From a virus (lineage: Duplodnaviria; Caudoviricetes): a DNA stretch of 64,000 nucleotides. Shown here piece after piece: positions 225 through 64,000 of the stretch. The DNA lies in the IMG/VR virus record IMGVR_UViG_3300028832_000114, positions 1 through 64,000 of that record; one strand, given 5' to 3'. Made by a program: the position numbers and the translations under genes. Position 1 is the first letter of the stretch. Each line of letters starts with the position of its first letter. The notes below the pieces were generated by a model. That model saw only the letters and a list, made by a program, of their open reading frames with translations. It made no database searches and was not told the origin of the DNA.

Positions 225-445
225 TTTCACTTTAACAGCCCGTTAGGGATGTTTTGTGAAAAACATATTTATATTTAGGCTTTCTCACAATCTCACATTT
301 CACAAAGTTTTCACAACAATTCTTCACATTTTTCACAATATTTTCTCACAACTTCACAATTTATTCTTCACATTTCACAACACTGTTAGAAACCGTGAGT
401 ATCATATTGTTCACATTCTTCACAATTTTCACTAATAATCACATC
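225..445. repeat. Cluster of TCACA/TTCACA short direct repeats (iteron-like)
   Basis: More than ten copies in about 220 bp; a second cluster at 1179-1212. Confidence 0.7.
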
Positions 446-835
446 TTTATTTTTTCAAGGCTGTCTATGGCGGACAGCATCTCCACTTAGGCCAACCATA
501 GCCCCTAATTCAGTATTACTTGGCAATCTTCCATGACCCCCATAAAACTCAATTATAGCCCCCTTAATTTGTTCATCTGATACTGCGGAAGCACGCCCTC
601 CTTTTTTCCCTTTTCCAGACTGTGCGGCAGTATATTCATGAGAGCCTTCTATTAACGCCCTAACACTAGTTATAAATAACTTTGATACATCTCCAGCATC
701 AGGCGGCAATTCTCCATATACCCCGTAATAACATAAATCATAATTAAGTCTATATCTTAATTGTTCATCTTGTATTTCATTTACTGCTTCTAAATACCTT
801 TCATTATATGTAAAAGTAGTGCCTAATTTTCCCAT
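386..835 (-). CDS. DUF6291-like putative replication initiator with C-terminal HTH (extended through TGA=Trp at 455-457)
   Basis: N-terminus FTYNERYLEAV..L..DLCYYG.YGELP resembles DUF6291; HTH-like PSNTELGAMVGLS; frame continues to TAA at 386-388. Confidence 0.5.
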
Positions 836-843
836 CTCCGCAC

Positions 844-1182
844 CTACCCTTCAATACCTTCAAAGTATTCTTTAATTGCGGGATGTGTTTCTAAAAACTC
901 GCGCAAATCTTGCATTTGTTCTTCTTCGCTTTTATTTACTTTTTCTATATATTCTGCTTTTTTACCTTTTCCAATCTTTTCTATCATTACACCTGTCTTT
1001 TTATATATGCCTGCTTGAACTGCGGGAAAATTTTTATAAATTGACACTTCACTATATCCATATTTTTTTGCTAATTGTTCTTGCGTCATATTTTCCCTCT
1101 TTTCTATTATATATCTATTATACTCAAAATTTTTCCAAAAATCAAATTCTTTTTGTAATGATTGTGCGTATTTTTTCGTCAC
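844..1182 (-). CDS. HTH-containing hypothetical protein
   Basis: MTQEQLAKKYGYSEVSIYK HTH-like motif. Confidence 0.55.
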   Translation of the reverse strand: MTKKYAQSLQKEFDFWKNFEYNRYIIEKRENMTQEQLAKKYGYSEVSIYKNFPAVQAGIYKKTGVMIEKIGKGKKAEYIEKVNKSEEEQMQDLREFLETHPAIKEYFEGIEG

Positions 1183-1270
1183 AACCTCACAATTTCACAA
1201 TAGTTTCACACAGCCCCTTTCTTTATATAGATGCGGAAATGCTTGTTTTGATGCAACTTTAGCCGCAAAT

Positions 1271-1292
1271 AAAAAGGCTAGTTATCTAGCCT
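1271..1292 (-). terminator. Intrinsic terminator
   Basis: AGGCTAG-loop-CTAGCCT hairpin followed by T run on minus strand. Confidence 0.6.
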
Positions 1293-1298
1293 CTATTT

Positions 1299-1556: not shown

Positions 1557-1567
1557 GCGGCAGCACC

Positions 1568-5269: not shown

Positions 5270-7063
5270 TTAATTAGATTGCTCACTATATATTGTATTT
5301 TTTATATATTCAACTATTTCTTGCTCGTCCGTTATAATTTTTGGAACAATTATTGAAATATATTTACTATTATCTCCATTTGAAATAGTATATTCTATAT
5401 TATCAAAAGCACGTATTTCTCGTATTATTAGTTTTTTAAATTCTTCAAAAGTAAAATTTCTTCTATTTATAATGTTTTGATATATTTCTTCTTTTTCAAC
5501 ATCAACGTTATGTTCATTTGTATATGCATATGGCATATAATTAAACATAGGATTATATAAATCTGTTGTAACTGCCCAACTTTGTGTATTAGCTCGTGGA
5601 ATTATAAATGTATGACTATCAGCGGCAGCTGGTTCTTCATTTGCAGGATCTTGATCAGCGTGCTCTTCTGCCGCATTATCCGCTTCTTGAAGCTCTGGAT
5701 GATGTTGCCTATAGAATGGACAGTTTGCACAATGTTCTGGATTACATTCTATTACACTGCTATCATCAAAGTCGGCATCTCCTTCTTGCTCAGCTTGCCA
5801 TAGATCTCGTTCTGAACAAGCATGTTCTTCACCATCTATCTCACAGTGTGCATGCGCCCAAAGATATGAACGACAATTTTCACAATCATGGTCGCATTCT
5901 ACATAATCATCAGCATAATCACACCATTCTTCATTAGAACCCTCTTCACACCAATTTTCATTTATATGCCCATCACCATTATATTCCATATAATCTTCAT
6001 CACTACCACAATATTTTTCTCCACAGCCACATGGACATACTATATCATCACAATATATGTCAAATGGTGCGTGAAATTCATCATTTTTTAATACCCACAC
6101 ATTATCATTATGATATTCACTATATCCATACTCTCCATGCTGTCTATATGCATTCAATTTATCATCATATGTGCTTTTTCTCCATAGATTTTCTTTACCT
6201 GTTTTTTCGCATATGAAAGTCTCTACCTTGTTTCTTATCATTTTCATAAATTGCTCAGAACAATCTCTCTTCCATGGATATACGCTATTAAAATGAACAG
6301 CATTAAAAGTCTCATTAAATGCTAGTGTAATACGAAGTCTTTTATATCTTATATTTTTAAAATCATATTTATTATAAAGCATAAATTTACCTGCATCAGT
6401 CCAAACATAACTAATTACAGTTGCTTTATCTAATACGCCCGCCAAACAACCATCAGCATGACTATCACTAAAATTCTCTAGTCTATAACAAGATGTCCAA
6501 TTATAAGGATTTTCACTTGATAACATTATATCAACAGGGTCAATAGATAAAGTATATGTTGCATTTAATTCAGCATTTTCAAATACTTGCCCTATTTCAG
6601 TAACTACTTCATCAGGCGCATTTAATTTGCTTTTAAAGAAATGTGTGATAGAAGTTCCCTCCGCTATAGTAGGAAATATTTCATCTAACATTTTTCTTTC
6701 ATCCCATCCTATATTTTGGTATCTTATTTTATTATCACAATGATTTGAAAATATTTCGAGCCAAGGATAAAATACGACATGTTTTCTACCCACTTCTAAC
6801 ATTTTTTCTTTATAATCTCTCTGTTCATCGCGGTAAGTAATAGGCATATCTACCCTTAATTCACCACCAAAGAAATCAAATAGATATTTTTTATTTCTAG
6901 CCCATCTTATTAAATATTCTTCAATTATTTCATCTTTTAATTCTGTCATAGATAACCCCGAATATTGAGCAATACATTTTGTAAAATCGGGAATACTAAT
7001 TTTATTTACCATTGGAGTATATTCTTCTCCTAATTTATCTATTAAAGTTTTTTTAGTTAACAT
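5270..7063 (-). CDS. Large hypothetical protein with Cys/acidic-rich region
   Basis: 597-aa ORF; CPCGC and many CxxC motifs in the C-terminal half. Confidence 0.75.
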   Translation of the reverse strand: MLTKKTLIDKLGEEYTPMVNKISIPDFTKCIAQYSGLSMTELKDEIIEEYLIRWARNKKYLFDFFGGELRVDMPITYRDEQRDYKEKMLEVGRKHVVFYPWLEIFSNHCDNKIRYQNIGWDERKMLDEIFPTIAEGTSITHFFKSKLNAPDEVVTEIGQVFENAELNATYTLSIDPVDIMLSSENPYNWTSCYRLENFSDSHADGCLAGVLDKATVISYVWTDAGKFMLYNKYDFKNIRYKRLRITLAFNETFNAVHFNSVYPWKRDCSEQFMKMIRNKVETFICEKTGKENLWRKSTYDDKLNAYRQHGEYGYSEYHNDNVWVLKNDEFHAPFDIYCDDIVCPCGCGEKYCGSDEDYMEYNGDGHINENWCEEGSNEEWCDYADDYVECDHDCENCRSYLWAHAHCEIDGEEHACSERDLWQAEQEGDADFDDSSVIECNPEHCANCPFYRQHHPELQEADNAAEEHADQDPANEEPAAADSHTFIIPRANTQSWAVTTDLYNPMFNYMPYAYTNEHNVDVEKEEIYQNIINRRNFTFEEFKKLIIREIRAFDNIEYTISNGDNSKYISIIVPKIITDEQEIVEYIKNTIYSEQSN

Positions 7064-10930: not shown

Positions 10931-11131
10931 TTATTTTACCCTTTTAAGAACTTTAATTTCTTCTTCTTCATTTTCAAATGTTAAAACTCAACATATATTT
11001 TTAAACTCTTGTAAATTATGTCAAGTTAAAGCTAAATTGTTTTGTTTTAATCAAGTTATAAAATTTTTTCAAGTAAACATTTTATGAAATGTTTGTTGTT
11101 CTATCTCTTCCGTTGTTATAAACTCTTTCAT
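10931..11131 (-). CDS. 66-aa hypothetical protein with four TGA(Trp) codons
   Basis: GGAGG SD, ATG, frame open to TAA only if TGA=Trp. Confidence 0.6.
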
Positions 11132-11468: not shown

Positions 11469-12324
11469 ATATAGAAAGGTCTATTATGCACCCGACCAAA
11501 AGGCTGGTTTCATGTTGCTTTTTTTATGGGGTTGGAACATCACCACCGCAGTCTCCCCAATAATATACTAGAGGCTGCACGAAACGAATACACATTTAAT
11601 CTATAATTCCTATAGAACCTTTTCCTAGTAATTGTATAATTAATTGATTGAAATGTCCCTTGATAAAAAAAGTAATTTCGATGTTCCTCACATTAAGAAT
11701 GATATAAGTAAACTTCGGTCATTAGCGAATAAAGAGCCTCATATGGGGAGCTACCCCATAATCTTCTTTATCCGAAGCAGATGCTTCCAAAACTAAACAA
11801 GGTCAATACTTGCTACTTTCACGGGCGATAGGCAATTTTCCAAATATTTATCTTTTTCATAAAACCATCGCACGGTTTGAAACTAAACAGTAAATGTGTA
11901 GATTTCCGCTACTCGCACTACTATCCATTTTTATATCGTGTTACCACGACTCAACTACACAATGACTTATTGGTCTTAATATGGTTTCAACCTATAGCCA
12001 CCACAGCTATCAGTTCCATACCTTACACACCCACAGGGCTGTCAGAATTGTCAACAATAGGATAGTATACCTTATCTAAATATATTCATCCCCACCACAA
12101 TCCTCTTTTTTGTGCTATTAACACATCTGGCGGCAATCGTTACCTTTTGCTGCATCTCCGTCCATTTAAAGTTTTCACTCTAAACCTTGAAGTTGAGGCA
12201 TCGTGTCCATCCCTAGAAGTCTGTCTAGGTTTTTCATATGGTTCAAAATTATTTTTTTTATCAAAGAACATTTCGTAATCATTAATTACATACTTATTAT
12301 ATAAAAAATTTTTAAAACTTTCAA

Positions 12325-13569: not shown

Positions 13570-13988
13570 TGGTGGAGATGACGGGACTCGAACCCGTGTC
13601 CAAAAACAACTACTAATCACAAATCTCATTCTTACCTTACAAGTTTTGTGCATACCGTTCTATCTATACTCTTTACCATATGCAAATCTCAAGAGTAAGT
13701 CTATGCTAAAAGTAAACATTAAGTGCGGCTGGCATAGATAGCTGACACCTTAATGGCGGTCTTTGTTAGTTAATACGATTATATTTTTCTCTGTCCGCTA
13801 CTGATACTTCATATAAAAGCTACTTAGTCTTACGCAAAGGCTACGCAATTAGATGCGAATAAAGATTTAACTTTATTAGTAATTTTTGATAAAATGTTTC
13901 CATTTAATTTTTTATGTGCTATTTAACGCATAACTACGACTTGTATTGTGATGGTTCGCTTGCTCCTGTCGAAACCAGAAACATCCCC
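13570..13988 (-). ncRNA. ssrA: tmRNA; tag (A)GNILSKITNKVKSLFASNCVAFA* at 13830-13901
   Basis: 5' GGGGATG..GGTTTCGAC, G3:U70, 3' T arm and CCA, resume codon after TAAAT. Confidence 0.93.
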
Positions 13989-16293: not shown

Positions 16294-16370
16294 TGGCGCC
16301 CCCTCAGGGATTCGAACCCCGGACACACGCCTTAGAAGGGCGTTGCTCTATCCTACTGAGCTAAGAGGGC
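16294..16370 (-). tRNA. tRNA-Arg(TCT)
   Basis: Canonical cloverleaf. Confidence 0.95.
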
Positions 16371-18013: not shown

Positions 18014-18089
18014 TGGCAGGGGATGAAGGCATCGAACCTCCGACCTACGGTTTTGGAGACCGTCGCTCTGCCAGCTGAGCTAATCCCCT
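18014..18089 (-). tRNA. tRNA-Trp(CCA)
   Basis: Canonical cloverleaf, G73. Confidence 0.95.
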
Positions 18090-18092: not shown

Positions 18093-18188
18093 TGGCAGGG
18101 GCTGTAGGATTCGAACCCACACCCCGGGTTTTGGAGACCCGTCTTTACGGTTTTGAAGACCGCTGTGCTACCATTACACTAAGCCCCT
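18093..18188 (-). tRNA. tRNA-Trp(TCA), UGA-decoding, with a second CCA anticodon stem-loop in the variable region
   Basis: AGGGGCT acceptor, GCGGT-CTTCAAA-ACCGT then AAAGA-CGGGT-CTCCAAA-ACCCG-GGGT, normal T arm, G73, CCA. Confidence 0.88.
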
Positions 18189-19040: not shown

Positions 19041-19862
19041 TTATTCTGTTAAAGCTTTACAAGTTGAAGGGCCAACATATCCATCTACATTTAGATGTTT
19101 ATCTTTTTGGAATTTTTTAACTGCTGTATTTGTGGCAGGTCCAAATGAACCATCTACACCAGAACTTCCAACACTATAACCTAATTCAATTAATCTATTT
19201 TGTAACCATTTAACCATGATTACTGCTTTAACACCTTTATATAATTGATGTTTTGCACATGCAGCTGTAGTTGCTGGTCCAAATGATCCATCAACTGCAA
19301 GTCCACATTGCCATTGTTCATTCATTTTTTGTTGTAAAAGTTTTACTTGGTCAACTGGAACATCTTGATCACTATAATCTATATACTTAAGTAATCCATG
19401 ATAAGTCCATTTTAAATTTTTCTTTCCTTGATAATATCTGTTTCCTTTACTATCAATTTCACTAATTATTGCTTTTTTAGTTCCCCAACCAGTCGTATCT
19501 TCAAATACTTTTCCGTTTCCAATATAAATTCCTGTATGATTATATTTTGTATCTTTCATACATAAATATTCACCTGGAACTAAATTACTGAAATTAGTAG
19601 ATACTTTTGTACAATAATTTAATGCTCCATTACAAGTAAAATCTGCTACACCATTAGATTTGTATACTGTGCCACCACGAGATAAATTTTTATCCGCTTT
19701 AAAACCCCATAAAATACATTTTACTGATAAAACGCAATCAAATTGCCATTTTCCATTACTATTTAATTTACTTCAATTTTTACCACTATAATATACATTT
19801 GGTACGCTATTTACTAACCATTTCAATTTTTCAATAAATTGTTTACTTTTCATTACAGCCAT
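19041..19862 (-). CDS. Endolysin-like protein: NlpC/P60-type catalytic domain plus two PG_binding_1 repeats (one internal TGA)
   Basis: FDC...ILWG, HTGIYIG; two VDGSFGPAT repeats; AGGAGG SD before 19862. Confidence 0.85.
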
Positions 19863-20046: not shown

Positions 20047-20454
20047 CTAAATAATTTCTATTGTTTTTGTTTGTGGCAACTCTGCCTTTTTAGATGCGAT
20101 GGTAATATATAATAAACCATTTTTCATAGTTGAAGTAATATTATCTAAATCGCAACTAGTTTCATCACAAGAGAACTTAGAATTAATTGAATATGTTTTT
20201 CCTGTGATTTCATCTTTTGTTTTGCCTTCTATTAAAATATAATGTTTTCCATTAATACATTTAACAGAAACTTTTAAATCTTTTTTGTCTAATCCTAAAA
20301 CATTGTGAACAATAGTAATAGAACCGTCTTTATTATTATTGATTGAATAAGGGTGCATATCTTTTTCATCTCTAATAAATTTGTAGAATCCCTTATCTCA
20401 ATCGAAAGGGTCAACAGCCCAATCTAATAAATTAATATCATTTAATAAACTCAT
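20047..20454 (-). CDS. Small heat-shock protein (Hsp20), extended through one TGA
   Basis: GLDKKDLKVS, MKNGLLYITI alpha-crystallin motifs; AGGAGG SD. Confidence 0.8.
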
Positions 20455-21570: not shown

Positions 21571-21854
21571 TTCCTTATATAAATATTATATAATATTTTT
21601 ATAAAAAAGTAAAATATATATAAAAAATGGCGGTTCATTGAGTAATCCTATGTCTTAGGTCAAGTAGAGTTTCTCCAAAGATTACATCTCGTTACCAAAA
21701 TTGCACTTTCGTTTTAAAATCTTGATATGCGGTTACCCTGCATATGACTTGATTGCCACTTAGTACACACTTCAAACTCAATAAACATCGGTCTAGAAGT
21801 TTTCCTTAACAATAATTTGCTATTAACTAGAATACCGTGCCATTTATTACTTAT

Positions 21855-23472: not shown

Positions 23473-23793
23473 TTATAAACCTAACGCCCTTAATAAATCA
23501 TTAACATTGTTTTTTTCATCTTCTGTTGGTTCAACAATAGGTTTAGATGTTGTTGTTTCAACATCTTCAAATTCTATTTTATTTGCGGCAATACCTGGTA
23601 CTGCATTGTCAGCACCCTGTTCAACATTTTCTTTAGCCGCAGTTAAAGTAACTTTAATTTGAATAGTTTCTCCATTTTCTAAGATAGGAATTCTTATTTC
23701 TTTTCCATCATTATATAAAAATGAACCTTCAAAATTACTTAATATTTTCTTCTGTATTTCCGCTTTCGCTATCTGACCCTTCGCCATCTTCAA
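23473..23793 (-). CDS. Hypothetical phage protein
   Basis: ORF track. Confidence 0.65.
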   Translation of the reverse strand: MKMAKGQIAKAEIQKKILSNFEGSFLYNDGKEIRIPILENGETIQIKVTLTAAKENVEQGADNAVPGIAANKIEFEDVETTTSKPIVEPTEDEKNNVNDLLRALGL

Positions 23794-33316: not shown

Positions 33317-33378
33317 CAACATTTTTTATTATTCTTGAAAATACTGAAAAAATATTATATAATATATTTATAAGGGAA

Positions 33379-42307: not shown

Positions 42308-42517
42308 ATGAACGATAAACTCGAGTTATGAATAAAAACTTGAGACAACCCTACGTTTACGTTCTTTGGTTGAGTAACCGAGGCGGGACAATATTCCGCT
42401 TTAAGTCAGCTTGATGAAAATCAAGTTAAAGAAGCTATTATTATAGCTCGTGGAGCCAACGACCAAATACGTATGGTTAATTATCGAGACTATGAAAACA
42501 AAGGCAAGGTGAGATAA
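42308..42517 (+). CDS. Small hypothetical protein with three TGA(Trp)
   Basis: Exactly fills the gap between primase and RecJ under code 4. Confidence 0.6.
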
Positions 42518-44376: not shown

Positions 44377-45579
44377 ATGATTCAATTAAACGATAAACAA
44401 CTTGAAGGTTTAAATCTTGCAGTAGCCAGATATAGAGATGGTGAAAAGACTACTATTATATCAGGTTATGCGGGAACTGGAAAGTCAACCTTAGTTAAAT
44501 TTATTATTGCCGCCCTAAATAATGACGGTATTGATCCAGATAAAGATGTTGTATATACATCGTTCACTGGTAAAGCAACTCAAGTATTACAAAAAAAAGG
44601 AAATAAAAATGTTAGTACATTGCACAAACTATTATATGAGTATTTTCCTAGAGCAGATGGCACATTCTTTAGGAAACCAGTATTAGATATACCATATAAA
44701 ATTGTTATTGTAGATGAATGTAGTATGGTGCCTAAAGAATTATTAATGCAACTTGCAAAATATAAAGTTCATATAATTTGTTTAGGAGATCCAGGCCAAT
44801 TGCCGCCAATAAATAAAGATGAAGATAATCATTTACTTGACAATCCACACGTATTTCTAAATGAGATTATGCGTCAAGAAGAACAAAGTGAAATAATAAA
44901 ACTTACTATGGATGTCAGAGCAGGAAAACCTTTAAATCATTTTATTGGAAAAGAAGTTCAAATATTAGATAAAGATGAGCTTACAACAGGTATGTTAATG
45001 TGGGCAGACCAAATTATTTGTTCTACCAATGCAACAAGAATAGCATTAAATAAACAAATGAGGGCTTTATTAGGTCGCTGTGATAATCCTGAAGATGGAG
45101 ATAAAGTAATTTGTCTTCGTAATTATTGAGATATATTAAGCGAAGATAAATCACCACTTGTAAATGGAACAATTGGAACATTAAAAAATAGTTTTGAAAG
45201 TTTCTTTAAATTACCTGGATATATTACAAATTATAGAATATCACAGATACCAACTGTTCTTGCAACTTTTGCATCAGATGATGGTATAACTACATTTAAT
45301 AATTTAACAATGGATAAAAAAATGATTTTAGAGGGTGAACCAACATTAACTTCTAAAGAAAATTTTAAATTAAGTAAAAATAAAAAATATGTAAATAGTA
45401 TTCCATTAAGTTTTACTTATGGATATGCCATTACTTGCCACAAAGCACAAGGTAGTGAATGGGATAATGTACTTGTTATTGAAGAAGGCTTTCCTTTTGA
45501 TAAACAAGAACATATTAAATGATTATATACAGCCGCAACTAGGGCTGCTAAAAAACTAGTTATAATAAGAAAGATATAG
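44377..45579 (+). CDS. RecD/Dda-like SF1B helicase (two TGA)
   Basis: GYAGTGKS, VDECSM, GDPGQL, HKAQGSEW, [TGA]LYTAATRA. Confidence 0.9.
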
Positions 45580-46406: not shown

Positions 46407-49400
46407 ATGAAAGGAAGGGAAGATATGAGTAATAGATTTGAAGTTCATAGTCATACAATGTATAGTAATTTAAGACTTTTAGATAGTATTAACCGTCCGA
46501 AAGATTTAATTAATAAAGCAATTGAATTAGGATTAGCTGGTATAGCAATCACAGATCATGAGTGTATAAGTTCTCATCCTGAAATAAATTTTTATCAAAC
46601 AGAAGTTCAAAAAGAACATCCTGATTTTAAAATAGCATTAGGAAATGAAATATATTTAACTGACACAAGAGATAGTGGTCAAAGATATTATCACTTTATT
46701 TTAATAGCAAAAAATAAAATAGGTCATCGCGCATTAAGAGAATTATCTTCAAGAGCGTGGATGAATAGTTATTGGAATCGAGGTCTTGAACGTGTTCCAA
46801 CATTAAAAGATGATTTAGAAGAAATATTAAAAAAGTATCCGAATAGTTTAATTGGAACAACAGCATGTTTAGGTGGGGAATTAAGTATTAATACATTAGA
46901 ATTAATAAAATGTGAAAAAACTAATGATAAAGATGGTGCGGCAGTTGCACATAATAATATAGTAAAATTTTTGTTATGGTGCAAAAATGTATTTGGAGAT
47001 AATAATTTTTATATTGAATGTGCTCCTGGTACAAGTCGTGAACAAATCTTAGTTAATAAAAGATTTCCCGCAATTGCAAAAGCATTTGGATTAAAAATGG
47101 TTATTGGAACAGATGCACATTATCTTAAAAAAGAAGATAGATATGTTCATAAAGCATATCTTAATAGTAAGTTTGGAGAGCGTGAAGTAGATGAGTTCTA
47201 TGAATTTGCATATCTTCAAAATAACGAAGAAATAATAGAACATTTAAAAGCATCTGATTTTAGTAATGAATTTATAGATGAAATGTTTCAAAATAGTTAT
47301 GAAATATATGCAAAGATAGAAAATTATAATTTAGCTCATGCGCAAACAATCCCTCATGTTGAAGTAGAAGATTATCCTATTATAGAGATTGAATCAGAAG
47401 AATTTTTAGATAAGTATCCAGTTTTATCTGATATGTTTCAATCAAATGATCAAATAGAAAGATATTGGGTAAACAAATGTTCAAATAAATTAAGAAAATT
47501 GGGTTTAAGAAATGAAACTTATCTAAGTAGATTAGAAGAAGAGGCGGATATTAAAAGAACAATTAGTGAAAAATTAGGAACTAATATGTTTGCATATCCA
47601 GTTACACTTCAACATTATGTAGATTTATTTTGGAATTGTGGAAGTATAGTAGGAGCTGGTCGTGGTTCAAGTTGTTCAGGTTTAAATCATTATTTATTAG
47701 GTATAACTCAACTTGATCCGATACAATGGAATCTTCCATTCTGGAGATATTTAAATAAAGAGCGTGTTGAGTTAGGTGATATAGATTTAGATTTATGTCC
47801 AAGTAAGCGTCCTAAGATTTTAAATGAAATTAAAAAAGAAAGAGGACAAAATTTTAAGGCGGAAATAGATGATTTAAGTAGAAAGAATCTTGGTTGTACA
47901 TTAATAGCAACATTTGGTACAGAGGGTACAAGATCAACAATATTAACTGCATGTCGTGGTTATAGGAATGAAGAGTATCCAGATGGTATAGATGTTGATA
48001 CAGCACAATATTTATCATCATTAATCCCAAGTGAACGTGGGTTCTTATGGCCGCTTAATGATGTTATTAATGGTGATGAAGAAAAAGGTAGAAAGCCAAT
48101 TAAAACATTTATAAATGAAGTAAATATGTTTCCTGGATTATTAGATATAATGTCTGGTATTGAAGGTTTAGTAAATAAAAGAAGTAGTCATGCTTCAGGA
48201 GTTATCTTATTTGATGAAGATCCATATGAGTTTGGTGCATTTATGAGAACTCCAAAAGGAGAAATTATCACAGCGTATGATTTGCATATGTGTGAAGCAT
48301 GTGGTATGACGAAATATGACTTCTTAGTAACAGAAGTTCAAGATAAATTAACAGAAGCAATTAAAATGTTGCAAGATTATGGAGAAATTGAAAGTGATTT
48401 AACATTAAGAGAAGTATATGATAAATATTTTCACCCAAATGTTCTTCCTATTGAAGATAATAAATATTGGAAAGTATTGCAAGATAATAGTGTTTTAAAT
48501 ATCTTTCAGTTTGATAGTGATGTTGGAGGTCAAGCCGCAAAAAAGATTAAGCCAACAAATATAATGGAAATGGCGGATGCAAATGGTTTGATGAGATTAA
48601 TGACTGCGGAAAAAGGTCAAGAAACTCCAATGGAAAAATATATAAGATTTAAGAATAATATAAATTTATGGTATAGAGAAATGGACTCATATGGTCTAAC
48701 AAAAGAAGAACAAAAAGTATTAGAGCCATATTTTAAGAGTTCACATGGTGTTCCTCCAAGCCAAGAGCAGTTAATGAGAATGTTAATGGATGAAAAGATT
48801 TGTAACTTTACTCTTGCGGAAGCGAATGCCGCACGTAAGATAGTTGGTAAGAAACAAATGAATAAGATCCCCGCATTAAGACAACAGGTATTAGATCAAG
48901 CGTCAAGTCCATGTATGGGTAATTATATATGGAAGTGTGGTGTTGGTCCGCAGATGGGATATTCATTTAGTATCATTCACGCGTTAGCATATAGTTTCAT
49001 TGGTTTTCAAACAATGTATATAGCGACAAGATGGAATCCGATATATTGGAACACAGCGTGTTTAATAGTTAATAGCGGAAGTCTTGAAGAAGATAGTGAT
49101 TTTGAAGAAGACGAGGATGGATATATAGTTGAGAAAAAAGAAAAATCAACAGATTATAGTAAAATAGCAAAAGCGTTAGGAGATATAATTAATAAAGGAA
49201 TTAAAGTTAGTTTAGTTGATATAAATAGGTCAGATTATAGTTTTCAACCAGATGTAGATAATAATGAAATATTATTTGGTATGAAAGCATTAAATAATGT
49301 TGGCGGTCCGATTATTGAACAAATAAAAGCAAGTCGTCCTTATGCGGGAATCGCAGATTTTATGGCAAAGTGTCCGTTGAATAAGAGTGCAATGATTAGT

Positions 49401-50378
49401 TTAATTAAGGCGGGTGCATTTGATAAAGTAGATAGAGATAATGCGGCGGCCGCAGGTGTAGAACCACGAATCTGGACAATGGTATATTATTTAAGTAAGG
49501 TTTGTGAAGCAAAGAAAAGATTAACCTTACAAAACTTTAATGGTCTATTGCAACACGAACTTATTCCTCAAGAATTAGATTTTCAAAAAAGAACTTTTGT
49601 ATTTAATAAATATTTAAAAGCAAATCAAAAAGTTGGAAAATATTATGTATTTAATCCATCTTGCGAAGAGTTTTATAATAAGTTTTTTGATGCTGACCAG
49701 TTAGAAGTAATAAATGGTTTAACTTGTATTCTTCAAACAAGATGGGATAAGATTTATCAAGATGTTATGGCGGAAGCCCGCACATGGTTACAAGAACATC
49801 AAGAAGAAATGTTAAAGAAATTTAATATGATATTATTTAAAGAATATTGGGATAAATATGCACAAGGAAATATTTCTGCGTGGGAAATGGAATCATTATG
49901 TTTCTATTATCATGAACACGAGTTAGCACATGTTAATACATATAAATATGGAATTGCAAATTTCTTTGATTTGCCAACAGAACCTCCTATTGATTCAATG
50001 TTTAAGAGAAATGGTAAAGACATTCCAATCTATCAAACATTTAAAATAATAGGAACAGTAATTAATAAAAATGATGTAAAAAGTTCAATCACAATATTAA
50101 CGACAAAAGGTATCGTAACTGTCAAATTTACAAAAGAATATTATGCAATGTATAATCGTCAGTTAAGCGAAATCCAAGAAGATGGAACAAAAAAGATAAC
50201 TGAAAAAGGTTGGTTCACAAGAGGAACAAAAGTTATGATAACTGGGTTTAGAAGAGATGATATGTTTGTTGCAAAAAGTTATACAAAAACACAAACACAT
50301 CAATTATATAAAATATTAGAAGTAGATGGCGGCAATATGAAACTCGAACATGAAAGAAAAACAGCCGCAGAAGAATAG
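46407..50378 (+). CDS. dnaE: DNA polymerase III alpha subunit
   Basis: PHP HSHT..S/TDH, GRGS, DIDLD, HASG, OB fold. Confidence 0.95.
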   Translation: MKGREDMSNRFEVHSHTMYSNLRLLDSINRPKDLINKAIELGLAGIAITDHECISSHPEINFYQTEVQKEHPDFKIALGNEIYLTDTRDSGQRYYHFILIAKNKIGHRALRELSSRAWMNSYWNRGLERVPTLKDDLEEILKKYPNSLIGTTACLGGELSINTLELIKCEKTNDKDGAAVAHNNIVKFLLWCKNVFGDNNFYIECAPGTSREQILVNKRFPAIAKAFGLKMVIGTDAHYLKKEDRYVHKAYLNSKFGEREVDEFYEFAYLQNNEEIIEHLKASDFSNEFIDEMFQNSYEIYAKIENYNLAHAQTIPHVEVEDYPIIEIESEEFLDKYPVLSDMFQSNDQIERYWVNKCSNKLRKLGLRNETYLSRLEEEADIKRTISEKLGTNMFAYPVTLQHYVDLFWNCGSIVGAGRGSSCSGLNHYLLGITQLDPIQWNLPFWRYLNKERVELGDIDLDLCPSKRPKILNEIKKERGQNFKAEIDDLSRKNLGCTLIATFGTEGTRSTILTACRGYRNEEYPDGIDVDTAQYLSSLIPSERGFLWPLNDVINGDEEKGRKPIKTFINEVNMFPGLLDIMSGIEGLVNKRSSHASGVILFDEDPYEFGAFMRTPKGEIITAYDLHMCEACGMTKYDFLVTEVQDKLTEAIKMLQDYGEIESDLTLREVYDKYFHPNVLPIEDNKYWKVLQDNSVLNIFQFDSDVGGQAAKKIKPTNIMEMADANGLMRLMTAEKGQETPMEKYIRFKNNINLWYREMDSYGLTKEEQKVLEPYFKSSHGVPPSQEQLMRMLMDEKICNFTLAEANAARKIVGKKQMNKIPALRQQVLDQASSPCMGNYIWKCGVGPQMGYSFSIIHALAYSFIGFQTMYIATRWNPIYWNTACLIVNSGSLEEDSDFEEDEDGYIVEKKEKSTDYSKIAKALGDIINKGIKVSLVDINRSDYSFQPDVDNNEILFGMKALNNVGGPIIEQIKASRPYAGIADFMAKCPLNKSAMISLIKAGAFDKVDRDNAAAAGVEPRIWTMVYYLSKVCEAKKRLTLQNFNGLLQHELIPQELDFQKRTFVFNKYLKANQKVGKYYVFNPSCEEFYNKFFDADQLEVINGLTCILQTRWDKIYQDVMAEARTWLQEHQEEMLKKFNMILFKEYWDKYAQGNISAWEMESLCFYYHEHELAHVNTYKYGIANFFDLPTEPPIDSMFKRNGKDIPIYQTFKIIGTVINKNDVKSSITILTTKGIVTVKFTKEYYAMYNRQLSEIQEDGTKKITEKGWFTRGTKVMITGFRRDDMFVAKSYTKTQTHQLYKILEVDGGNMKLEHERKTAAEE

Positions 50379-50814: not shown

Positions 50815-53070
50815 ATGAAAGTCATTAAACGTGATGGTCGCTTGGTTGTTTTTGACCCAGCGAAAATCGAGAGAGCTATTCTCGCAGCATTCGAGGATGT
50901 AGATGGTGAAATATCTGACTACGCTAAAGATAAAGCTGAAAATATAGCAAGTTATATTGAAGGATATTATTTAGATGTTGATGAAACACCTAATATTGAA
51001 GATATCCAAGACCTAGTAGAAAAAGGTCTAATGGCAACAAAAAGAAAAGATGTTGCAAAAGCCTATATTTTATATAGGGAAGAAAGAAATAAAATTAGAA
51101 ATTCCAATAGCCAATTAATGAAGGCTATTAAGGAAAAGATTGAAGCATCAGATGTTCAAAATCAAAATGCTAATATTGATGAATATTCTTTCGGCGGCCG
51201 TATGGGTGAAGCCCGCAGTGAGTTAATGAAAGATTATGCATTAAATTATTTAGTATCTGATATGGCAAGAGAAAATCATTTAAATAATGAAATTTATATT
51301 CATGATTTAGATGCTTATGCTGTTGGTATGCATAACTGTTTAACCATTCCTTTTGATAAACTATTAGCAGAAGGATTTAACACAAGACAAACAGATGTTA
51401 GACCAGCTCGTTCAATTAACACAGCATTTCAATTAGTTGCAGTTTTATTTCAATTACAATCACTTCAACAATTTGGAGGAGTTAGCGCAAGTCATTTAGA
51501 TTGAACTATGGTTCCATATGTTCGTATGTCATTTAGAAAACATTGGATTAATGGTGTAAAATATATTGAAGATAAAGTTAATGAAATTCCTGTTCAATAT
51601 TTACCAGAAGAAACATCTATTGAAGATGAAGATTATCAAATGTTTCCAAGAGCATATCAATATGCAATGGATATGACAACAAAAGAACTTATGCAAGCTG
51701 TTCAAGGTATGTATCATAATCTAAATACACTACAATCTAGAAGTGGAAATCAATTACCTTTTACTTCTATTAACTATGGTACTTGTACTTTACCTGAAGG
51801 TAGAATGGTTACAAAAGCATTATTAGAAGGCTCTATTGAAGGTGTAGGAAAAGTTAGAAAAACTCCTATATTCCCATGCGGTATATTCCAATGTATGAAA
51901 GGTGTTAATCGTAAACCTGGAGACCCTAACTATGATTTATTTAAGTTAGCATTAAAATCAACAGCTCAAAGATTATATCCTAATTATGTTAATATAGATT
52001 GGTCTACTAACGCGGGATATGATATTAACGATCCTAAAACATATGTTTCAACTATGGGTTGTAGAACTTATAATGGTGCGGATATTAATGCTGAACCTGG
52101 CACAAATCCTCAAACTAAGGACGGCCGCGGCAATATATGTCCAGTTACTATTGTAATGCCAACATTAGCTATGGAAGCTAAAGAAGAAGCTGAAAGATTT
52201 AGAGAGGGAGCAGATGTATATTTTGATAAAATTGAATTATTTATGACGCTATTAGATAAAAAAATCCATGAAGCTAGAGATATGTTAGTTGAAAGATATA
52301 AATGGATTATTAGTCAAAATCCTGAATCTGCAAAATTTATGTATGAAAATGGATTAATGCTTGGCTATGATGGTAAGACAGTTGAAAGTGCTATGAAACA
52401 TGGAACTCTTGTAATAGGTCAAATTGGTATGGCTGAAACATTACAAATTTTAATTGGTTGCGACCATACAGAACCTAGAGGAATGGAATTAGCAAAAAGA
52501 ATTGAACAATTATTTAAAGATAGATGTGCTGAATTTAAAAAAGAATTACACTTAAATATTGGTGTTTATTATACACCTGCTGAAAATATGTGTTATACAT
52601 CTATGAAAAAATTTAGAAAAAAATATGGAATTATTCCTAATGTAAGTGATAGAGATTATTTCACAAATAGTATTCATGTTCCTGTATGGAAAGAAATGAG
52701 TCCATTTGAAAAAATTGATATTGAAAGTCAATTAACTGGATATAGTAATGCAGGATGTATTACTTATGTAGAATTAGAGGGCGGAGTTAAAAATAATTTA
52801 GACGCTCTTGAAACTATTGTTAACTATGCTATGGATAAAGATATTCCATATTTCGCAATAAATGTTCCAAATGATATATGTTTAGATTGTGGCTATACTG
52901 ATGAATTCAATGATAAATGTCCAATGTGCGGAAGCACGCATATTCAACAACTTAGACGTGTTACTGGATATTTAACAGGAGATTATAAAACAGCATTTAA
53001 TAAAGGTAAACAACAAGAAACTGAACAAAGATATAAACATAGTAAAAAATTGGAGAACTGGCATGATTAG
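50815..53070 (+). CDS. nrdD: Anaerobic ribonucleoside-triphosphate reductase (TGA=Trp at 51502-51504)
   Basis: ATP cone VIKRDG, MGCRT, RRVTGYL. Confidence 0.95.
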
Positions 53071-53784: not shown

Positions 53785-54717
53785 ATGGAAAGAAAAGAAA
53801 TATGTGATAAGATTTATTACATGACTAAAAAAAGAAAATCTTTTAAAACCGTTTGTCAAGAATTAAATTTAAAAGATTATGAAGTTATAGGTTTAGTAAC
53901 TATAATGGCACAAGAGGGATATAATATTGATTTTGTAGATGGAGAGCTTATTATTAGAAAAGTTCCTAAACAAAATCAAGATGTTTATGAAATTCCATAT
54001 AATTTAGAACATTTAAAATTATTATTAATTAGTGATACTCATTTATGTTCTAAATATGATAGATTAGATATTTTAAAATATTTATATTCAAAAGCAGAAG
54101 ATAAAGGTATTCAACATATATTACACTCAGGTGATTTTACTGATGGTCGTTCAAATAGACCAGAACATGTATATGAATTAAAAGAGCATTCTTATGAAGG
54201 ACAAGTTGATTATTGTGTTGATAGATATCCTCAATTTAATGGAAAAACATATATAATTTCAGGTAATCATGATGACTGGTGGTATAAATCTGCAGGAAGT
54301 GAAATTGTAAAAACAATAGCTAAACAAAGAGAAGATATGGTTTATTTAGGTCCTGATGTTGCAGATTTAAAAATTGGTAAATTAAAAATTAGATTATTTC
54401 ATGGAATGGGCGGCGGCGCATATGCTAAATCTTATAAATTACAAAAATATTTAGATAGCATTCCAACCGCAGAAAGACCTGATATTTTACAAACAGGACA
54501 TACTCATCAATCATTCTATATGAAACAAGATGGTACACATTGTTTTCAAACCAGCTGTTTAGAAGATCAAACGCCATATTGTAGAAGTATGGGTATGGGA
54601 AATGATAAATCATGTTGATGAGTTGATGTAGACTTTGATGATAAGGGAAATATTTATAGTATTAAACCTGAATTAGAAACATTTGGAGACAAGAAAATTT
54701 ATACTAAAAGGAAGTAG
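53785..54717 (+). CDS. Metallophosphoesterase with N-terminal HTH (tandem TGA TGA)
   Basis: SDTH, HSGD, GNHD, GHTH; frame continues CWWVDV to TAG. Confidence 0.85.
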
Positions 54718-56646: not shown

Positions 56647-57202
56647 ATATAGTGCTATGAATAGTGGCAAAACAACCAATTTGTTACAAGTAGCACATAA
56701 TTATGAAGAACGCGGGTTTATGGTTAAAATAGCTAAACCTGAAATAGATACAAAGGCGGATGACCGTGTTTCTAGCCGCATTGGACTAGAACGAAAGGTA
56801 GACTACCTAATACCGCCGCAAGGAGAAATATCAATAGATCTAAGAACTAATGTGCTATTGATTGACGAAGCACAATTTCTAAATAAAGAACAAATAGATC
56901 AATTATATGAAATATCAAAATTATATAATATTTTAATTATTTGCTATGGTTTAAGAACGGATTTCCGCATGCAAGGATTTCCTGGGGCTACTCGTCTACT
57001 AGAAATAGCTGATGAAATTGAAGAATTAAAAACTATTTGCTCTTGTGGCAAAAAGGCTACATTTAATCTTCGTCTAATTAATGGTTTTCCAACATTTGAA
57101 GGAGACCAAGTGTCTATTGATAATCAAGAAGAAATAAAATATGATAGTATATGCGGGGATTGTTATTTAAAATTAAAACAAGGAGCTAAAAATGGATTAT
57201 AA
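56627..57202 (+). CDS. tdk: Thymidine kinase
   Basis: [22 protein letters not shown]. Confidence 0.95.
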
Positions 57203-57815
57203 AATTGAAACTAAAATTACTGATTTTGATATTAATTGAAAAAAAATAAAATCAGCATGTATGACTACTATATCAAAAGAAGCTGGAGATAAAGAACCAT
57301 CAAGTGAATGAAAAAGAAAATTATTATTATGTGAGCATAGTCCTATTCGTCGCGGTACTGTAAGTTGGAAGTGAGATGCTATTCCCTATGCAATTTCAAC
57401 TCATTTTGTAAGACATCATGAAGGTGTAGAAAAATGGGTAGGCACTCAAAGAGCTGATAGAACAGAAGTAAAAGATAGAAGTGAAAGAAGCCAAATGAAT
57501 CCAGTCCCTATGGAGATGGAAGCTAATATTCAAGCATTAATTAATATATCATATAAAAGACTTTGTACTTGTGCAGATCCACTTACTAGAAAATATTGGG
57601 AAAATACTTTATTAGCAATTAAGGAATATGATGAAGATATATTCTGGGCTTGTGTTCCTCAATGTATTAGATGTGGAGGATGCCCTGAATATAAAACTTG
57701 TGGATATTATGAACAATTTGCAAAAAATCTAACAATGGAAGAACAAATAGATATTCATAAAAGATATGATAAATATAATGAAGAAAGAGCTAAAAGACTA
57801 ACTTTGAAAAAATAA
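57192..57815 (+). CDS. thyX: Flavin-dependent thymidylate synthase-like protein (three TGA)
   Basis: EHSPIR, HFVRH, RLC motifs once TGA is read as Trp. Confidence 0.75.
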
Positions 57816-60032: not shown

Positions 60033-60034
60033 TT

Positions 60035-60469
60035 ATGGAAATAAAATATAAAAAATTAGATTCAAATGCAAAAGAACCAACTCAAGGGAGTCCATATGCA
60101 GCAGGATATGATTTATATGCAGCAACAGATAAAGCAACAGGAATTAGACCGCATACAACAGTAAAGATTGGAACTGGTATTGCTATTGAGTTACCTGAAA
60201 ATACCTTTGGTGCTATTTTTGCTAGAAGCGGACTTGCTACAAAACAAGGATTGCGTCCTGCAAATTGTGTAGGAGTAGTTGATTCGGATTATAGAGGAGA
60301 AGTTATTGTAGCATTACACAATGATACAGATAATATACAAGTTATTTCATCTGGTGATCGTATAGCTCAATTGGTAGTTATGCCTTATATACCTGTTAGA
60401 TTTATTGAAACAGAAGAATTAACAGATACTGTCCGTGGTGATGGTGGATTTGGTTCTACAGGAGTTTAA
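60035..60469 (+). CDS. dut: dUTPase (trimeric)
   Basis: AGYDL, RSGLA, GVVDSDYRGE, RG.GGFGSTG. Confidence 0.97.
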   Translation: MEIKYKKLDSNAKEPTQGSPYAAGYDLYAATDKATGIRPHTTVKIGTGIAIELPENTFGAIFARSGLATKQGLRPANCVGVVDSDYRGEVIVALHNDTDNIQVISSGDRIAQLVVMPYIPVRFIETEELTDTVRGDGGFGSTGV

Positions 60470-60682
60470 TATGTTTGCAGCTCTAATGGGATTGCTTACA
60501 GCCCAAAACAATCTTAGAATGACTCAAGCAAGATTAATAACTCATCATATACCAATTAATAATAATGATATTGAAAAAGAACAAAAAGAAAAAGAAGAAT
60601 ATAAACCAAAGCATGAAGAAGAATTTTATAGACCTAAACATGCTAGTGAAATAGATATGTCAATATCAATTTAGGAGGAAAA

Positions 60683-61609
60683 ATGAAATATTTAATTACA
60701 GGTAGCGGTTATTTGGCTAAAAATTTAATAGCTAGATTGTTAAACCACCCAGACACTGAAAAAATTAAAATCTTTTCAAGAGCAGAAAAAGAACAATGAG
60801 AAACAAAAACTCTTTTTAATAATGATTCTAGATTAGAATTTATTATTGGAGATGTTAGAGATTATCAAGCAATTTGTACTGCTTTTGTTGACGTAGATCG
60901 TTGTATTCATACTGGCGCAATTAAAAGAATTGAAGTTGCAGAAAAACAACCAATGGAAGCAATTAAAACTAATGTAATTGGTAGTATGAATGTTATAAAT
61001 GCGGCAATCGCTAATAAAGTTAAAAAACTTATACTTATCTCAACTGACAAAGCGACTTCCGCAACCACTTGCTATGGCAGTACTAAATTCTTAATGGAAT
61101 GTATGGCATATGCAAACGAAAGTGATACAGATATTATTTGCACTCGTTATGGAAATGTATTTGGTTCAACCGGCAGTGTTGTTCCAATATTTGATGAATT
61201 AAGCAAACAAGGTAAACCATTAACTATTAGAAATGGAGAAATGACTCGTTTCTTTATGGAAGTAAGTAAATGTGTTGATATTATTATAACTGCATTAGAT
61301 TGTGGGAAAAATGGAGAATTATGGATATATGCTAGTAAAGCCTGTACAATTAAAGATCTAGCCGATGCTTTTGGCGGAGAACAAATTATTACTGGTGTAG
61401 AAAACATTGAAAAAAATGATGAAGCCCTTATTACTATTAATGAATTAAATCACAGTATAAAAGCTGATGAATATTATATTATTCGTAAAGATTATAAAAG
61501 TGACATTGAATATACAGAGCCGTTAACAAGTTATACAGCAGAAAGATTAACACAAGATGAAATTAAACAAATGATTAAGAATTGGAGGATGGCAAATGAT
61601 AAAAGTTAG
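60683..61609 (+). CDS. NDP-sugar 4,6-dehydratase (PseB/CapD-like), one TGA
   Basis: ITGSG, GDVRD, STDKA, YG.TK, RYGNV.GS.GSV. Confidence 0.85.
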
Positions 61610-62180
61610 TATCTTAATGCCAGCCTTCAATGCTGAACGTTTTATTCGAAATGCTTTAGCAAGCATTCCAAAAACTGACGAGATAGAAATTATAGTTGTT
61701 AATGATGGCTCTACAGATAAAACTGCGGCAATAGCTAAAGAATTTGATGTAAAATTAATTGACCGTAAGAAAAATATGGGCGTTGGTTATTCGCGCAAAG
61801 AGGCGCTTGCCGCCGCACAAGGTGAATACATAATGTTCTTTGATAGTGATGATACTATTAATACTGAAAATTTTAAAAAAGTAGTAGAAATGTTAGATGG
61901 AACTGATATAGTTTATTACGATATGATAAATAATAATGGAGAAATATATCATTTAAATGATTATTATAAAACAAAAGTTGTAGGAATGGTTAAATTTATT
62001 AGAAGAGAATATGCAAATAAATTTGATTATCCAGCACTACCAAGATACGAAGACGTAACTTTTAATGAAATGTTACAAAGTCTTCCACATACAGAAAAAT
62101 TTTCTAATTTAATTGTAGTAAACTATAATAACCCTAGATATGATAGCACTAGCGCAAAATGGCTTAGAGGTGAATTATAA
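61596..62180 (+). CDS. Glycosyltransferase family 2
   Basis: VSILMPAFN, VNDGSTD, FDSDD. Confidence 0.9.
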   Translation: MIKVSILMPAFNAERFIRNALASIPKTDEIEIIVVNDGSTDKTAAIAKEFDVKLIDRKKNMGVGYSRKEALAAAQGEYIMFFDSDDTINTENFKKVVEMLDGTDIVYYDMINNNGEIYHLNDYYKTKVVGMVKFIRREYANKFDYPALPRYEDVTFNEMLQSLPHTEKFSNLIVVNYNNPRYDSTSAKWLRGEL

Positions 62181-62181
62181 A

Positions 62182-62994
62182 ATGAAAATCAAATTATATT
62201 CACAATATCGTAGGTTTAATGATTTTCAAGAGCCAAAATATATTCAATGAGATCCAGACGGACAAATAGAAGCATATCATGATGTTTTTATCTCGGCGGC
62301 AATTCATAATAAAAATAACGGAAAAAAGAAAATTGCAATTATAACAGAACCAAGATGTGTTTGGCAACATGTTTTTGGAAACTTTGATATAGAACTATTT
62401 TTAAAAAGACAATATAATCTTTTTCAATATATATTTACATTTGATAATGAAATATTAAAATTGCCTAATGCTAAACCAATAGGTTTTCCTGGAATATGAT
62501 ATTCAGGAGACGAAGAAAAAACAAAAAATATCTCTATGTGTTGTTCTAATAAATCTATGTGTCCATCACATCTTAAAAGAAAAAAAGTTGCAGATAAATT
62601 AAAAAATAAAGTTGATATATTAGGAGATTATTTAGGAGAAGCAAGAGCTTCAACAAAAGACATATATAGTCAATATAAATACAGTGTTGTGTTAGAAAAT
62701 GATTGCTCTTATTGATATTATACAGAAAAAGTTATTAATGCTTTTGCTAATAAATGTATTCCAATTTATTATGGTACGCCTAGAATATTAGAACTATTTA
62801 ATCCAAAAGGAATAATTTTTGTTGAAAATTTAGATAAAATAGAAGAAATTATTGATAATCTAAACCCTCACTATTATGAAGAAAATATAGACGCAGTAAA
62901 TGAAAATTTTGAACTAGCAAAAAAATATAGTTGTTATGAAGATTGCCTATATTTAGATTATCAAAAAGAATTGGAGGACTTATGAAAATATTAG
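62182..62994 (+). CDS. GT10-like (fucosyltransferase-family) glycosyltransferase, several TGA; missed by ORF track
   Basis: YKYSVVLEN...YYTEK..NAF...CIPIYYG motif. Confidence 0.75.
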
Positions 62995-64000
62995 TTTTAA
63001 GTTGTGATAAGTATTCATATTTATGACCAACTTTTTTTACATTGCTAGATAAGTATTATCCAAATCATCCAGAGGTATATCTTTCAACAGAACAAAAAAA
63101 TTGTAAATATTGTAAAACAATCAATACTAAATCTGAAATATGAACAGATAGATATCAAAATGCGTTAAGACAAATTCCTGATGATTATGTTTTAGTTTTG
63201 TTAGAAGATTTTTTTATTCGTGGACCTGTTGATGAAGAGCGTATTAATCAATCATTAGAACTAATGAAAAACAATAAAAAAATTGCAGTATGTAATTTTG
63301 AATTACAATATAGAAAAGGAATTGAAAATGCATATCCTGGATATGATATTCAAAAAAATAATCAAATATATTTAAACTCTTGTCAACCTAGTTTGTGAAA
63401 TAGAGAAATATTAATTAATAGATTACAAACACCTCAAGATGCATGAGCATGAGAGACAACTCTTATTAATAGTCCATATCTTCATTTAATTAATAATACA
63501 AATAAATATATTATTGATATTGGATATAGACACCAAGCCATAACTGGAGATGGTTGAGGAGTAACAAGAGGCAGATTGTCTCAAGAGTGTCAAGACTTCT
63601 TAAAAACAGAAGGTTTAGAAATTAAAAAACATAAATTAAGTATTATTACACCCTATTACAATGTCTTAAACTATACCAAAGAGTTGGCGGCAGCACTTGA
63701 ACCGCAATTAACAGATGCAGTGGAATGAATTATTGTAGATGATGGTTGTAATGAGACCGAATTAGATAAATTAAATGCTCAAGTTATTCATTTAAAAGAG
63801 AATAGCGGCGGCGCTAGTGTTCCACGAAATGAAGGAATGAAAATTGCAGATGGCGATTATACAGTATTTATAGATGCTGATGATTTAGTTCAACCATATT
63901 ATATAAAAACAATTTTAAATAAAATTGAAAATAGTACATTTGATTATTGCTATTTTGGCTGAAAGGGTATTGGAGCATTACCTGTAAACATAATGATTAC
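62982..64000 (+). CDS. Two-domain glycosyltransferase (N-terminal GT-A-like plus GT2), eight TGA, runs off window
   Basis: LSCDKY..LW, LLEDFF, then SIITPYYN, IVDDG, FIDADD. Confidence 0.8.

Follow-up and report, generated by a model that had tools for sequence, protein, structure and literature searches.

A tailed-phage contig in which TGA behaves as a tryptophan codon and is used unevenly among gene modules

The locus and its genes

The stretch of DNA analysed here (the window, 64,000 nucleotides) is the first 64 kb of one 104,464-bp virus contig, IMG/VR record IMGVR_UViG_3300028832_000114 (Caudoviricetes), which IMG/VR classes as linear and CheckV rates as about 70% complete. Our subject is the codon TGA, which stands inside many of its genes and behaves as a codon for tryptophan (Trp), together with a transfer RNA (tRNA) of anticodon UCA encoded by the same DNA. 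The window has a G+C content of 30% and is laid out in large blocks. On the minus strand, the region from 1 to 26 kb codes for a sigma-70 factor, an RNA ligase, two lysins, Hsp20, 23 tRNA genes, a transfer-messenger RNA (tmRNA), a ROOL RNA and a partial OLE-like match. The replication and nucleotide-metabolism block (26–60 kb, plus strand) follows with RNase HI, GyrB/GyrA, LigA, a GIY-YIG nuclease, an AAA_24 protein, DnaB, primase, RecJ, an SF1B helicase, DnaE, NrdD/NrdG, SHMT and thymidine kinase. A sugar/glycosyltransferase cassette starts at 60683 (60.7 kb) on the same strand and runs on to about 67 kb; by Pfam it contains PseB-like, GT2 and GT10-like genes and a fusion of several glycosyltransferases. 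Tail and virion genes, among them that of a tape measure protein of 2880 amino acids, lie downstream of the window; the contig contains no terminase gene.

The original prediction, made from the letters of the window, held TGA to be recoded as Trp throughout and listed seven codons in the replication block (28540, 28768, 28780, 40379, 44250, 45520 and 51502). All seven are exact in-frame TGA codons, and each sits in an open reading frame (ORF) that is split under NCBI translation table 11 and joined under table 4. RNase HI (28477–29022, plus strand) holds those at 28540, 28768 and 28780, with a Pfam match (8.6e-30) that extends over all three and TGA or TGG in the relatives. In the DnaB helicase (39644–41185, plus strand) the TGA at 40379 (amino acid 246) lies upstream of most of the ATPase domain, the Pfam DnaB_C match covering residues 207–471, and the column is aromatic in all relatives (TAT 39, TGG 3, TTC 3). 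The RecJ exonuclease (42519–44324, plus strand) has its TGA at 44250, where relatives have TGG 22 times and TGA 12 times; another TGA, at 42510, is upstream of the probable start ATG at 42519. Two codons, at 45127 and 45520, interrupt the RecD/Dda-like SF1B helicase (44377–45579, plus strand; relatives TGG 38/TGA 3 and TGG 31/TTT 4). The anaerobic ribonucleotide reductase NrdD (50815–53070, plus strand) has one at 51502 (amino acid 230), crossed by a Pfam NRDD match (6e-149) and replaced in relatives by TGG 29 times and TGA once. The same block includes the GIY-YIG nuclease (35939–36865, plus strand; Pfam), with TGA at 36509 (amino acid 191; relatives TGG 21, TGA 6) and a second one at 36011 in a variable region, and a metallophosphoesterase (53785–54717, plus strand) with a tandem TGA-TGA at 54616 and 54619, beyond both of which the homology runs on and for which relatives have TGG/TGA and TGA/TGA.

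A protein of 207 amino acids with no family assigned (57192–57815, plus strand) has TGA at 57237, 57309 and 57372, and relatives carry TGG or TGA at all three. This is probably the gene that had been taken for ThyX, an identity that we rejected: no PF02511 match was found in the contig, the protein had no match in Pfam, PHROGs or the PDB, and the resemblance consists of a loose RHH..TQR motif seen by eye. The endolysin, Hsp20 and the glycosyltransferases had also been named as interrupted by TGA, and they are. The endolysin (19041–19862, minus strand; PG_binding_1 and a weak NlpC/P60 match) has the codon at 19773, and Hsp20 (20047–20454, minus strand; Pfam) at 20398, with TGG in two relatives. 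Within the window, the start of the glycosyltransferase cassette (60683–64000, plus strand) contains 21 TGA vs 4 TGG codons, and relatives likewise have either TGA or TGG there. In-frame TGA occurs in its PseB-like dehydratase as well as in the GT2 and GT10 genes; the GT10-like gene (62140–62994, 4 TGA) had no homologue in the five full relatives. Two further minus-strand proteins with no family assigned complete the set, one of 290 amino acids (23735–24607; TGA at 24104, 24281 and 24359, TGG or TGA in relatives) and one of 149 amino acids (386–835), in which the TGA at 455 is read through and is not a stop, one relative having TGG and another TGA.

TGA as a sense codon

A greedy non-overlapping gene set was built with TGA as sense over the full contig. 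It covers 90.6% of the contig and contains 196 TGA and 212 TGG codons; the joined frames end in TAA (78) or TAG (41), as had been predicted. A comparison of coding density between codes had been proposed in the original prediction, and it came out in the same direction: coverage rises from 72% under table 11 to 91% with TGA as sense, and strand switches go from 20 to 22. Opening TGA restores ORFs of 2880 amino acids (the tape measure protein, 27 TGA codons) and of 1725 amino acids. We did not accept ORF length or coverage alone as proof, since opening TAA raises coverage too (93% in the window and 87% in the contig, but with 80 strand switches), and we have therefore relied on homology across the TGA codons. 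Pfam domains cross them in RNase HI (RNase_H, residues 5–158), DnaB (DnaB_C, 207–471) and NrdD (NRDD, 118–742), and AAA_30 and UvrD_C_2 do so over the helicase. Of the 69 TGA codons in gene-set ORFs within the window, 35 are matched by either TGG or TGA at the corresponding column of close relatives.

The position of the codon within genes tells the same. In-frame TGA is spread uniformly along them, with a mean relative position of 0.48, the same as for TGG, and no pile-up at the 3' end, so there are no hidden TGA terminators, and no gene of the window needs TGA as a stop. The base following sense TGA showed no significant bias to a weak-termination context (A 47, C 8, G 30, T 14% at +4 vs a background of A 37, C 10, G 31, T 21%; P about 0.06–0.09). 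The presence of in-frame sense TGA is thus confirmed. One practical consequence is that annotation under table 11 breaks about one third of the phage genes, the tape measure protein falling into 28 pieces, so that no use of the sequence can do without the correct code.

The residue specified by TGA

At the level of codons, the TGA columns of the window hold TGG or TGA, or otherwise aromatic codons, across 58 related IMG/VR loci. Viewed in reverse over the same loci, TGA of the relatives falls on TGG of the window 65 times, on TGA 40 times and on TAT 10 times. Against three fully fetched relatives, the TGA columns of the contig (about 285) align with TGA 113, Trp 93 and Tyr 20, and its TGG columns show the same profile (Trp 277, TGA 44, Tyr 19, Phe 10). 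The cleanest of the four tests was against two complete sister genomes that use TGA as a stop: of 116 columns, 54 were Trp, 15 Phe and 15 Tyr. An empirical substitution likelihood calculated from these sisters was −248.2 for Trp, −377.6 for Tyr and −380.4 for Phe, so that Trp is favoured by 129 log units and stands far above Tyr, Phe and His. The amount of Trp fits as well, TGA and TGG together making 11–17 per 1000 codons in every module, a normal content, while TGG alone would come down to 0.33% in late genes.

The original prediction had also stated that the interrupted positions of RNase HI, RecJ and the SF1B helicase are typically Trp. For the first two this holds: the three RNase HI columns are W/Y, W and W in PDB chains, the last two being neighbouring Trp residues of the Escherichia coli chain in the alignment, and the RecJ column (44250) is W in 108 of the 108 homologues that reach it. 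It does not for the helicase: at 45520 its PDB homologues have I, L or V, and Trp occurs only inside the phage family. Overall, the residue check proposed with the prediction returned Trp, neither Gly nor random residues. Four independent comparisons agree, and the interpretation that TGA is a sense codon behaving as Trp is supported on the evidence of aligned sequences.

The tRNA(UCA) and its neighbors

A cognate tRNA had been claimed and is indeed encoded. ARAGORN places an opal suppressor tRNA(UCA) of 96 nucleotides at 18093–18188 on the minus strand (Rfam tRNA, 61.6 bits), with a 7-bp acceptor stem, A1-U72, G73, an encoded CCA end and the anticodon loop CUUCAAA. Only 3 nucleotides downstream lies a tRNA-Trp(CCA) (18014–18089, minus strand; ARAGORN), and the two share A1-U72, G73 and an AGGGG.U acceptor stem. 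A1-U72 and G73, with the anticodon, form the bacterial identity set for Trp. The length of the suppressor comes from an extra arm with a 5-bp stem and the loop CUCCAAA, a copy of the anticodon loop of the tRNA-Trp. The gene is kept in relatives at 96–97 nucleotides, with compensating changes by which the stem of the extra arm covaries. A pattern scan of IMG/VR returned 59 long-arm tRNA(UCA) genes, 16 of them with the exact CUCCAAA loop, and most of the others have, by eye, a loop containing CCA (GUCCAAA, GUCCAAG, UUCCAAC). Look-alikes in bacterial genomes were, among the matches listed, swamped by ordinary tRNA-Sec, with one CCA-loop case on a low-GC contig of a Phoenicibacter metagenome-assembled genome. 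The loop of the extra arm could possibly serve as a decoy anticodon for the tryptophanyl-tRNA synthetase (TrpRS) of the host.

The gene is not intact in every relative. In the complete relative G006 it is split after U34 by an insertion of about 640 nucleotides (L069:1500–2203) and is missed by ARAGORN; no Rfam family, group I intron included, matched this insertion at E <= 0.01. A distant relative (G017, 168,960 bp) has at L065:2064–2156 a 93-nucleotide tRNA whose anticodon is CUA; its variable arm is long, and positions 1 and 72 appear to be mismatched (A1-C72).

Neither the contig nor five relatives, of which one is a complete genome with terminal repeats, yielded a gene for release factor RF1 or for TrpRS. 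ARAGORN also called a 'tRNA-Pyl(CUA)' at 16294–16370 (minus strand), a candidate amber suppressor that we rejected: the ARAGORN model needs a C-C mismatch, while the Rfam covariance alignment gives a tRNA-Arg(UCU) with the loop CUUCUAA, a perfect 5-bp stem and a 5-nucleotide variable loop, and without it the array would contain no tRNA for Arg. There is therefore no amber suppressor in the phage, and TAG, which ends 41 genes, is a normal stop. The same wrong call was made in relative G001, where it would falsely suggest a second suppressor.

Uneven use of TGA among modules

Recoding across the whole window, as originally proposed, is right in that no gene requires TGA as a stop; the use of the codon is nevertheless very uneven, and several long genes have none. 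The share of TGA among Trp codons is 0.12 in the tRNA/early block, 0.24 in the replication block, 0.72 in the virion block and 0.84 in the glycosyltransferase cassette, the most heavily recoded part of the window (chi-square P = 7e-18 among modules). Of the codons for Lys, Glu and Gln, a share of 0.84–0.90 ends in A in all four. The extreme case is the DnaE-type DNA polymerase III alpha (46407–50378, plus strand; Pfam), with 19 TGG and 0 TGA codons (P = 1.7e-14 given an A-ending bias of 0.81) and 10 TGA vs 842 TGG in relatives. The run of GyrB, GyrA, a small ORF and the NAD-dependent DNA ligase (29087–35319, plus strand) is likewise free of TGA, with 15 TGG, and has 0 TGA vs 154 TGG in relatives; LigA alone accounts there for 0 TGA vs 135 TGG. 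Counted singly, the TGG codons of these TGA-free genes are 8 in LigA, 4 in GyrB, 3 in GyrA and 3 in the primase. In the minus-strand block, a gene for 597 amino acids (5270–7063) has 13 TGG and 0 TGA, and the sigma-70 factor of the phage (2528–3382, minus strand) is TGA-free.

Suppression is needed for full-length replication proteins, as the TGA of DnaB stands ahead of most of its ATPase domain. Downstream of the replication genes and on their strand, the glycosyltransferase cassette is nevertheless recoded like the virion genes (84% TGA), which suggests that it is expressed late, perhaps glycosylating parts of the virion.

Sister lineages, the host code and alternative readings

Relatives that lack in-frame TGA in the region use the codon as a terminator, 33 of 212 orthologues ending at TGA where the homology ends, vs 1 of 214 in the recoded clade. 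Two complete sisters, G010 and G016, are recoded at TAG and keep TGA as a stop. Taking TAG as sense raises coverage from 63% to 89% in G010 and from 70% to 91% in G016 and restores tape measure proteins of 2880 and 3118 amino acids; each genome has a true tRNA(CUA) with the loop CUCUAAA (G010:84243–84316; G016:88856–88931). The sister lineages of this family have thus chosen a different stop codon. As a side observation, in-frame TAG in these two genomes aligns with Glu and not with Gln: opposite the TAG columns the contig has E in 32%, D in 11%, and K and Q in 9% each (log-likelihood −589.5 for E, −660.2 for Q), and PDB chains aligned with the three TAG columns of NrdD show E (or P), then E, then D. 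For the TAG-recoded G016, ARAGORN also lists a putative ochre ('Stop') tRNA, anticodon UUA, at 90222–90296.

These data point to a host with the standard code and to a code switch made by the phage, since the use of TGA is uneven and the sisters recode TAG and keep TGA as a stop. In a cell in which TGA meant Trp there would be no reason for TGA to be strongly avoided in some genes despite the A-ending bias. A standard-code host is also favoured by the orthologues that end at TGA in relatives free of in-frame TGA and by the polymerase, whose nearest kin belong to SPbeta-like and Enterococcus phages. The alternative of a host on code 4 (Mollicutes-like, or another Firmicute with TGA as Trp), the phage simply sharing its code and the tRNA(UCA) only boosting supply, agrees with the 30% G+C content and with relatives that are phages of Firmicutes, but it predicts 84–90% TGA everywhere, against the 0 of 19 found in DnaE, 0 of 13 in the 597-amino-acid gene and 12–24% in the early and replication blocks. 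The TGA stops of the TAG-recoded sisters speak against it too, and so do the lysins, whose peptidoglycan-binding and NlpC/P60 domains indicate that they target peptidoglycan and therefore that the host is not a wall-less mycoplasma. We regard a code-4 host as improbable.

TGA could also be sense and mean another residue: Gly as in code 25, Ser if the long extra arm led to charging by seryl-tRNA synthetase (SerRS), or selenocysteine or Cys. ARAGORN does label the tRNA(UCA) 'SeC', and a long variable arm with G73 is also a feature of tRNA-Ser. Against this, the TGA columns contain only 3 Gly, 8 Ser and 3 Cys among the roughly 285 aligned with the three close relatives, and 3 Gly with no Ser and no Cys among the 116 aligned with the TGA-stop sisters; the likelihood is far higher for Trp, and the columns include positions of RNase HI at which Trp is conserved. 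Code 25 is rejected on both Gly counts. Selenocysteine decoding was rejected on the Cys count and on the geometry of the tRNA, which is 7/5 (acceptor/T) with a 4-bp D stem and A1-U72, not 8/5 with a 6-bp D stem, and the 196 in-frame TGA codons of the gene set are far too many for it. As the comparisons with relatives and the Trp content agree on Trp, Gly, Ser, Cys and selenocysteine are rejected as evolutionary meanings of the codon, and we consider this whole group of readings very improbable. That TGA is not translated through at all, the genes being pseudogenes, assembly errors or split genes, has nothing in its favour except that standard gene callers fragment them, and it is practically negligible given dozens of independent assemblies that have TGA or TGG at these columns, frames open for up to 2880 codons with 27 TGA, and a cognate tRNA.

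Proposed explanation

We find it very likely, taking the explanation as a whole, that TGA is a Trp codon in this phage, being never needed as a stop, lying inside conserved domains, swapping synonymously with TGG and having a tRNA(UCA) beside the tRNA-Trp(CCA), and that the phage is SPbeta-like, has a full genome of roughly 130 kb, infects a walled low-GC Firmicute and comes from a gut or rumen sample. The host would be on the standard code, and the tRNA(UCA) of the phage, made after infection, would be charged with Trp by the host TrpRS and would compete with the host release factor RF2 at UGA. As no phage TrpRS or RF1 was found, charging would have to depend on the host enzyme. Genes needed before the suppressor accumulates (sigma factor, DnaE, gyrase, ligase and primase) would stay free of TGA, the accessory genes of replication would tolerate a few such codons, and the glycosyltransferase cassette and the virion genes would have TGA near the level expected from the A-ending codon bias. 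Since these last two groups are rich in TGA, their full-length translation would be tied to the switched code.

Several points weigh against this explanation. The residue inserted at TGA would be Trp on the strength of sequence comparison. The extra arm of the tRNA(UCA) is long and class II-like (as in tRNAs for Ser, Leu, Tyr and selenocysteine), and together with G73 it makes charging by SerRS possible. The contig being about 70% complete, a TrpRS or an RF1 could lie in the remainder of the genome. Genes with and without TGA are interleaved in a replication block of a single orientation, so that the window does not fit a simple division into early and late genes. Finally, 34 of the 69 TGA codons in gene-set ORFs of the window are without comparative support, most of them in short doubtful ORFs (for example 243–425 and 10931–11131) or in possible N-terminal over-extensions.

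A further elaboration, which we put forward tentatively and hold to be rather doubtful, is that the code switch has moved ahead of DNA replication in this clade and that the level of the suppressor tRNA sets a graded programme of three steps, the phage having no TrpRS or RF1 of its own as the extra arm would keep the tRNA a substrate of the host TrpRS. The steps would be the pre-switch core, then the replication accessories and then the glycosylation and virion genes, in place of the two steps, early and late, of the published split. DnaB, RNase HI, RecJ, the SF1B helicase and NrdD would not be made at full length without suppression of UGA, and a fixed core (sigma factor, DnaE, gyrase, ligase and primase) would be TGA-free across the relatives.

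Comparison with known recoded systems

Gut phages with recoded stop codons and suppressor tRNAs were correctly cited in the original prediction as already known, the published case closest to ours being the Agate phages (Borges et al., 10.1101/2021.08.26.457843). These are TGA-recoded phages of Firmicutes of about 127 kb from the guts of cattle, pigs and tortoises, with suppressor tRNAs, heavy use of TGA in structural and lysis genes and loss of TGA stops; they have very close standard-code relatives and include members recoded at TAG (Borges et al., 10.1101/2021.08.26.457843). Likened by this published description, the contig fits the Agate type in every feature tested: a large gut phage of a Firmicute, with TGA as Trp, a tRNA(UCA) of its own, TGA-heavy structural genes, relatives with other codes, TAG-recoded members and lost TGA stops. 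The difference is in replication. The Agate machinery was described as standard-coded (Borges et al., 10.1101/2021.08.26.457843), while here RNase HI, DnaB, RecJ, the RecD-like helicase, NrdD and others carry TGA (24% of the Trp codons of the block) and only a core set is free of it.

Insertion of Trp at UGA has been shown experimentally for the phage TrpRS:tRNA(UCA) pairs AP1/HF2 in a 2025 preprint (PMC12636597). With these and with the Jade phages the present contig shares a phage tRNA(UCA) as the agent of the change from TGA to Trp. Jade phages have a code-change operon of TrpRS, RF1 and tRNA(UCA), unlike the contig and its five relatives, in which neither TrpRS nor RF1 was found, and the tRNA(UCA) described here differs from those of both Jade and AP1/HF2 in the extra arm that copies the Trp anticodon loop. 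Organisms of NCBI table 4 (Mycoplasma, Spiroplasma) also read TGA as Trp by a tRNA-Trp(UCA) that arose beside the tRNA-Trp(CCA), but in them TGA is the main Trp codon genome-wide and RF2 is lost, whereas here its use depends on the module, and it is apparently a virus that imposes the code on a standard-code cell. TGA is sense as well in code 25 (Gracilibacteria/Absconditabacteria and their phages), with the meaning Gly, in contrast to the Trp or otherwise aromatic columns found here, at which Gly makes up about 1–3%.

The contig therefore adds a well-documented member to the published TGA-recoded phages, a phenomenon that is itself already described. What it contributes is the spread of TGA into replication genes, a conserved TGA-free core and the finding of no phage TrpRS or RF1. 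The family would be a good system in which to study the passage of a virus from standard to altered coding and to ask which genes have to remain readable before the switch.

Relationships and other RNA genes

The DnaE-type polymerase is nearest (39% identity) to those of SPbeta-like Bacillus phages and of Enterococcus phages of 134–140 kb. A megablast search against GenBank phages returned a sole match, 740 bp in NrdD, to the Thomasclavelia phages TR-TP1 and TR-TP2.

Several structured RNAs are encoded within the minus-strand block. A full-length ROOL RNA (RF03087, 174.5 bits) at 11661–12265 (minus strand) adjoins an initiator-type tRNA-Met and accounts for a structured region free of ORFs. 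Between tRNA genes, at 21632–21835 (minus strand), OLE RNA is matched in part (RF01071, 107.5 bits, model positions 279–595 only); to our knowledge this RNA is known from extremophilic and anaerobic Firmicutes and not from phages. The phage also encodes a tmRNA (RF00023, 89.9 bits) at 13570–13988 (minus strand), within the tRNA array, for which ARAGORN gives the tag peptide DREKYNRIN.

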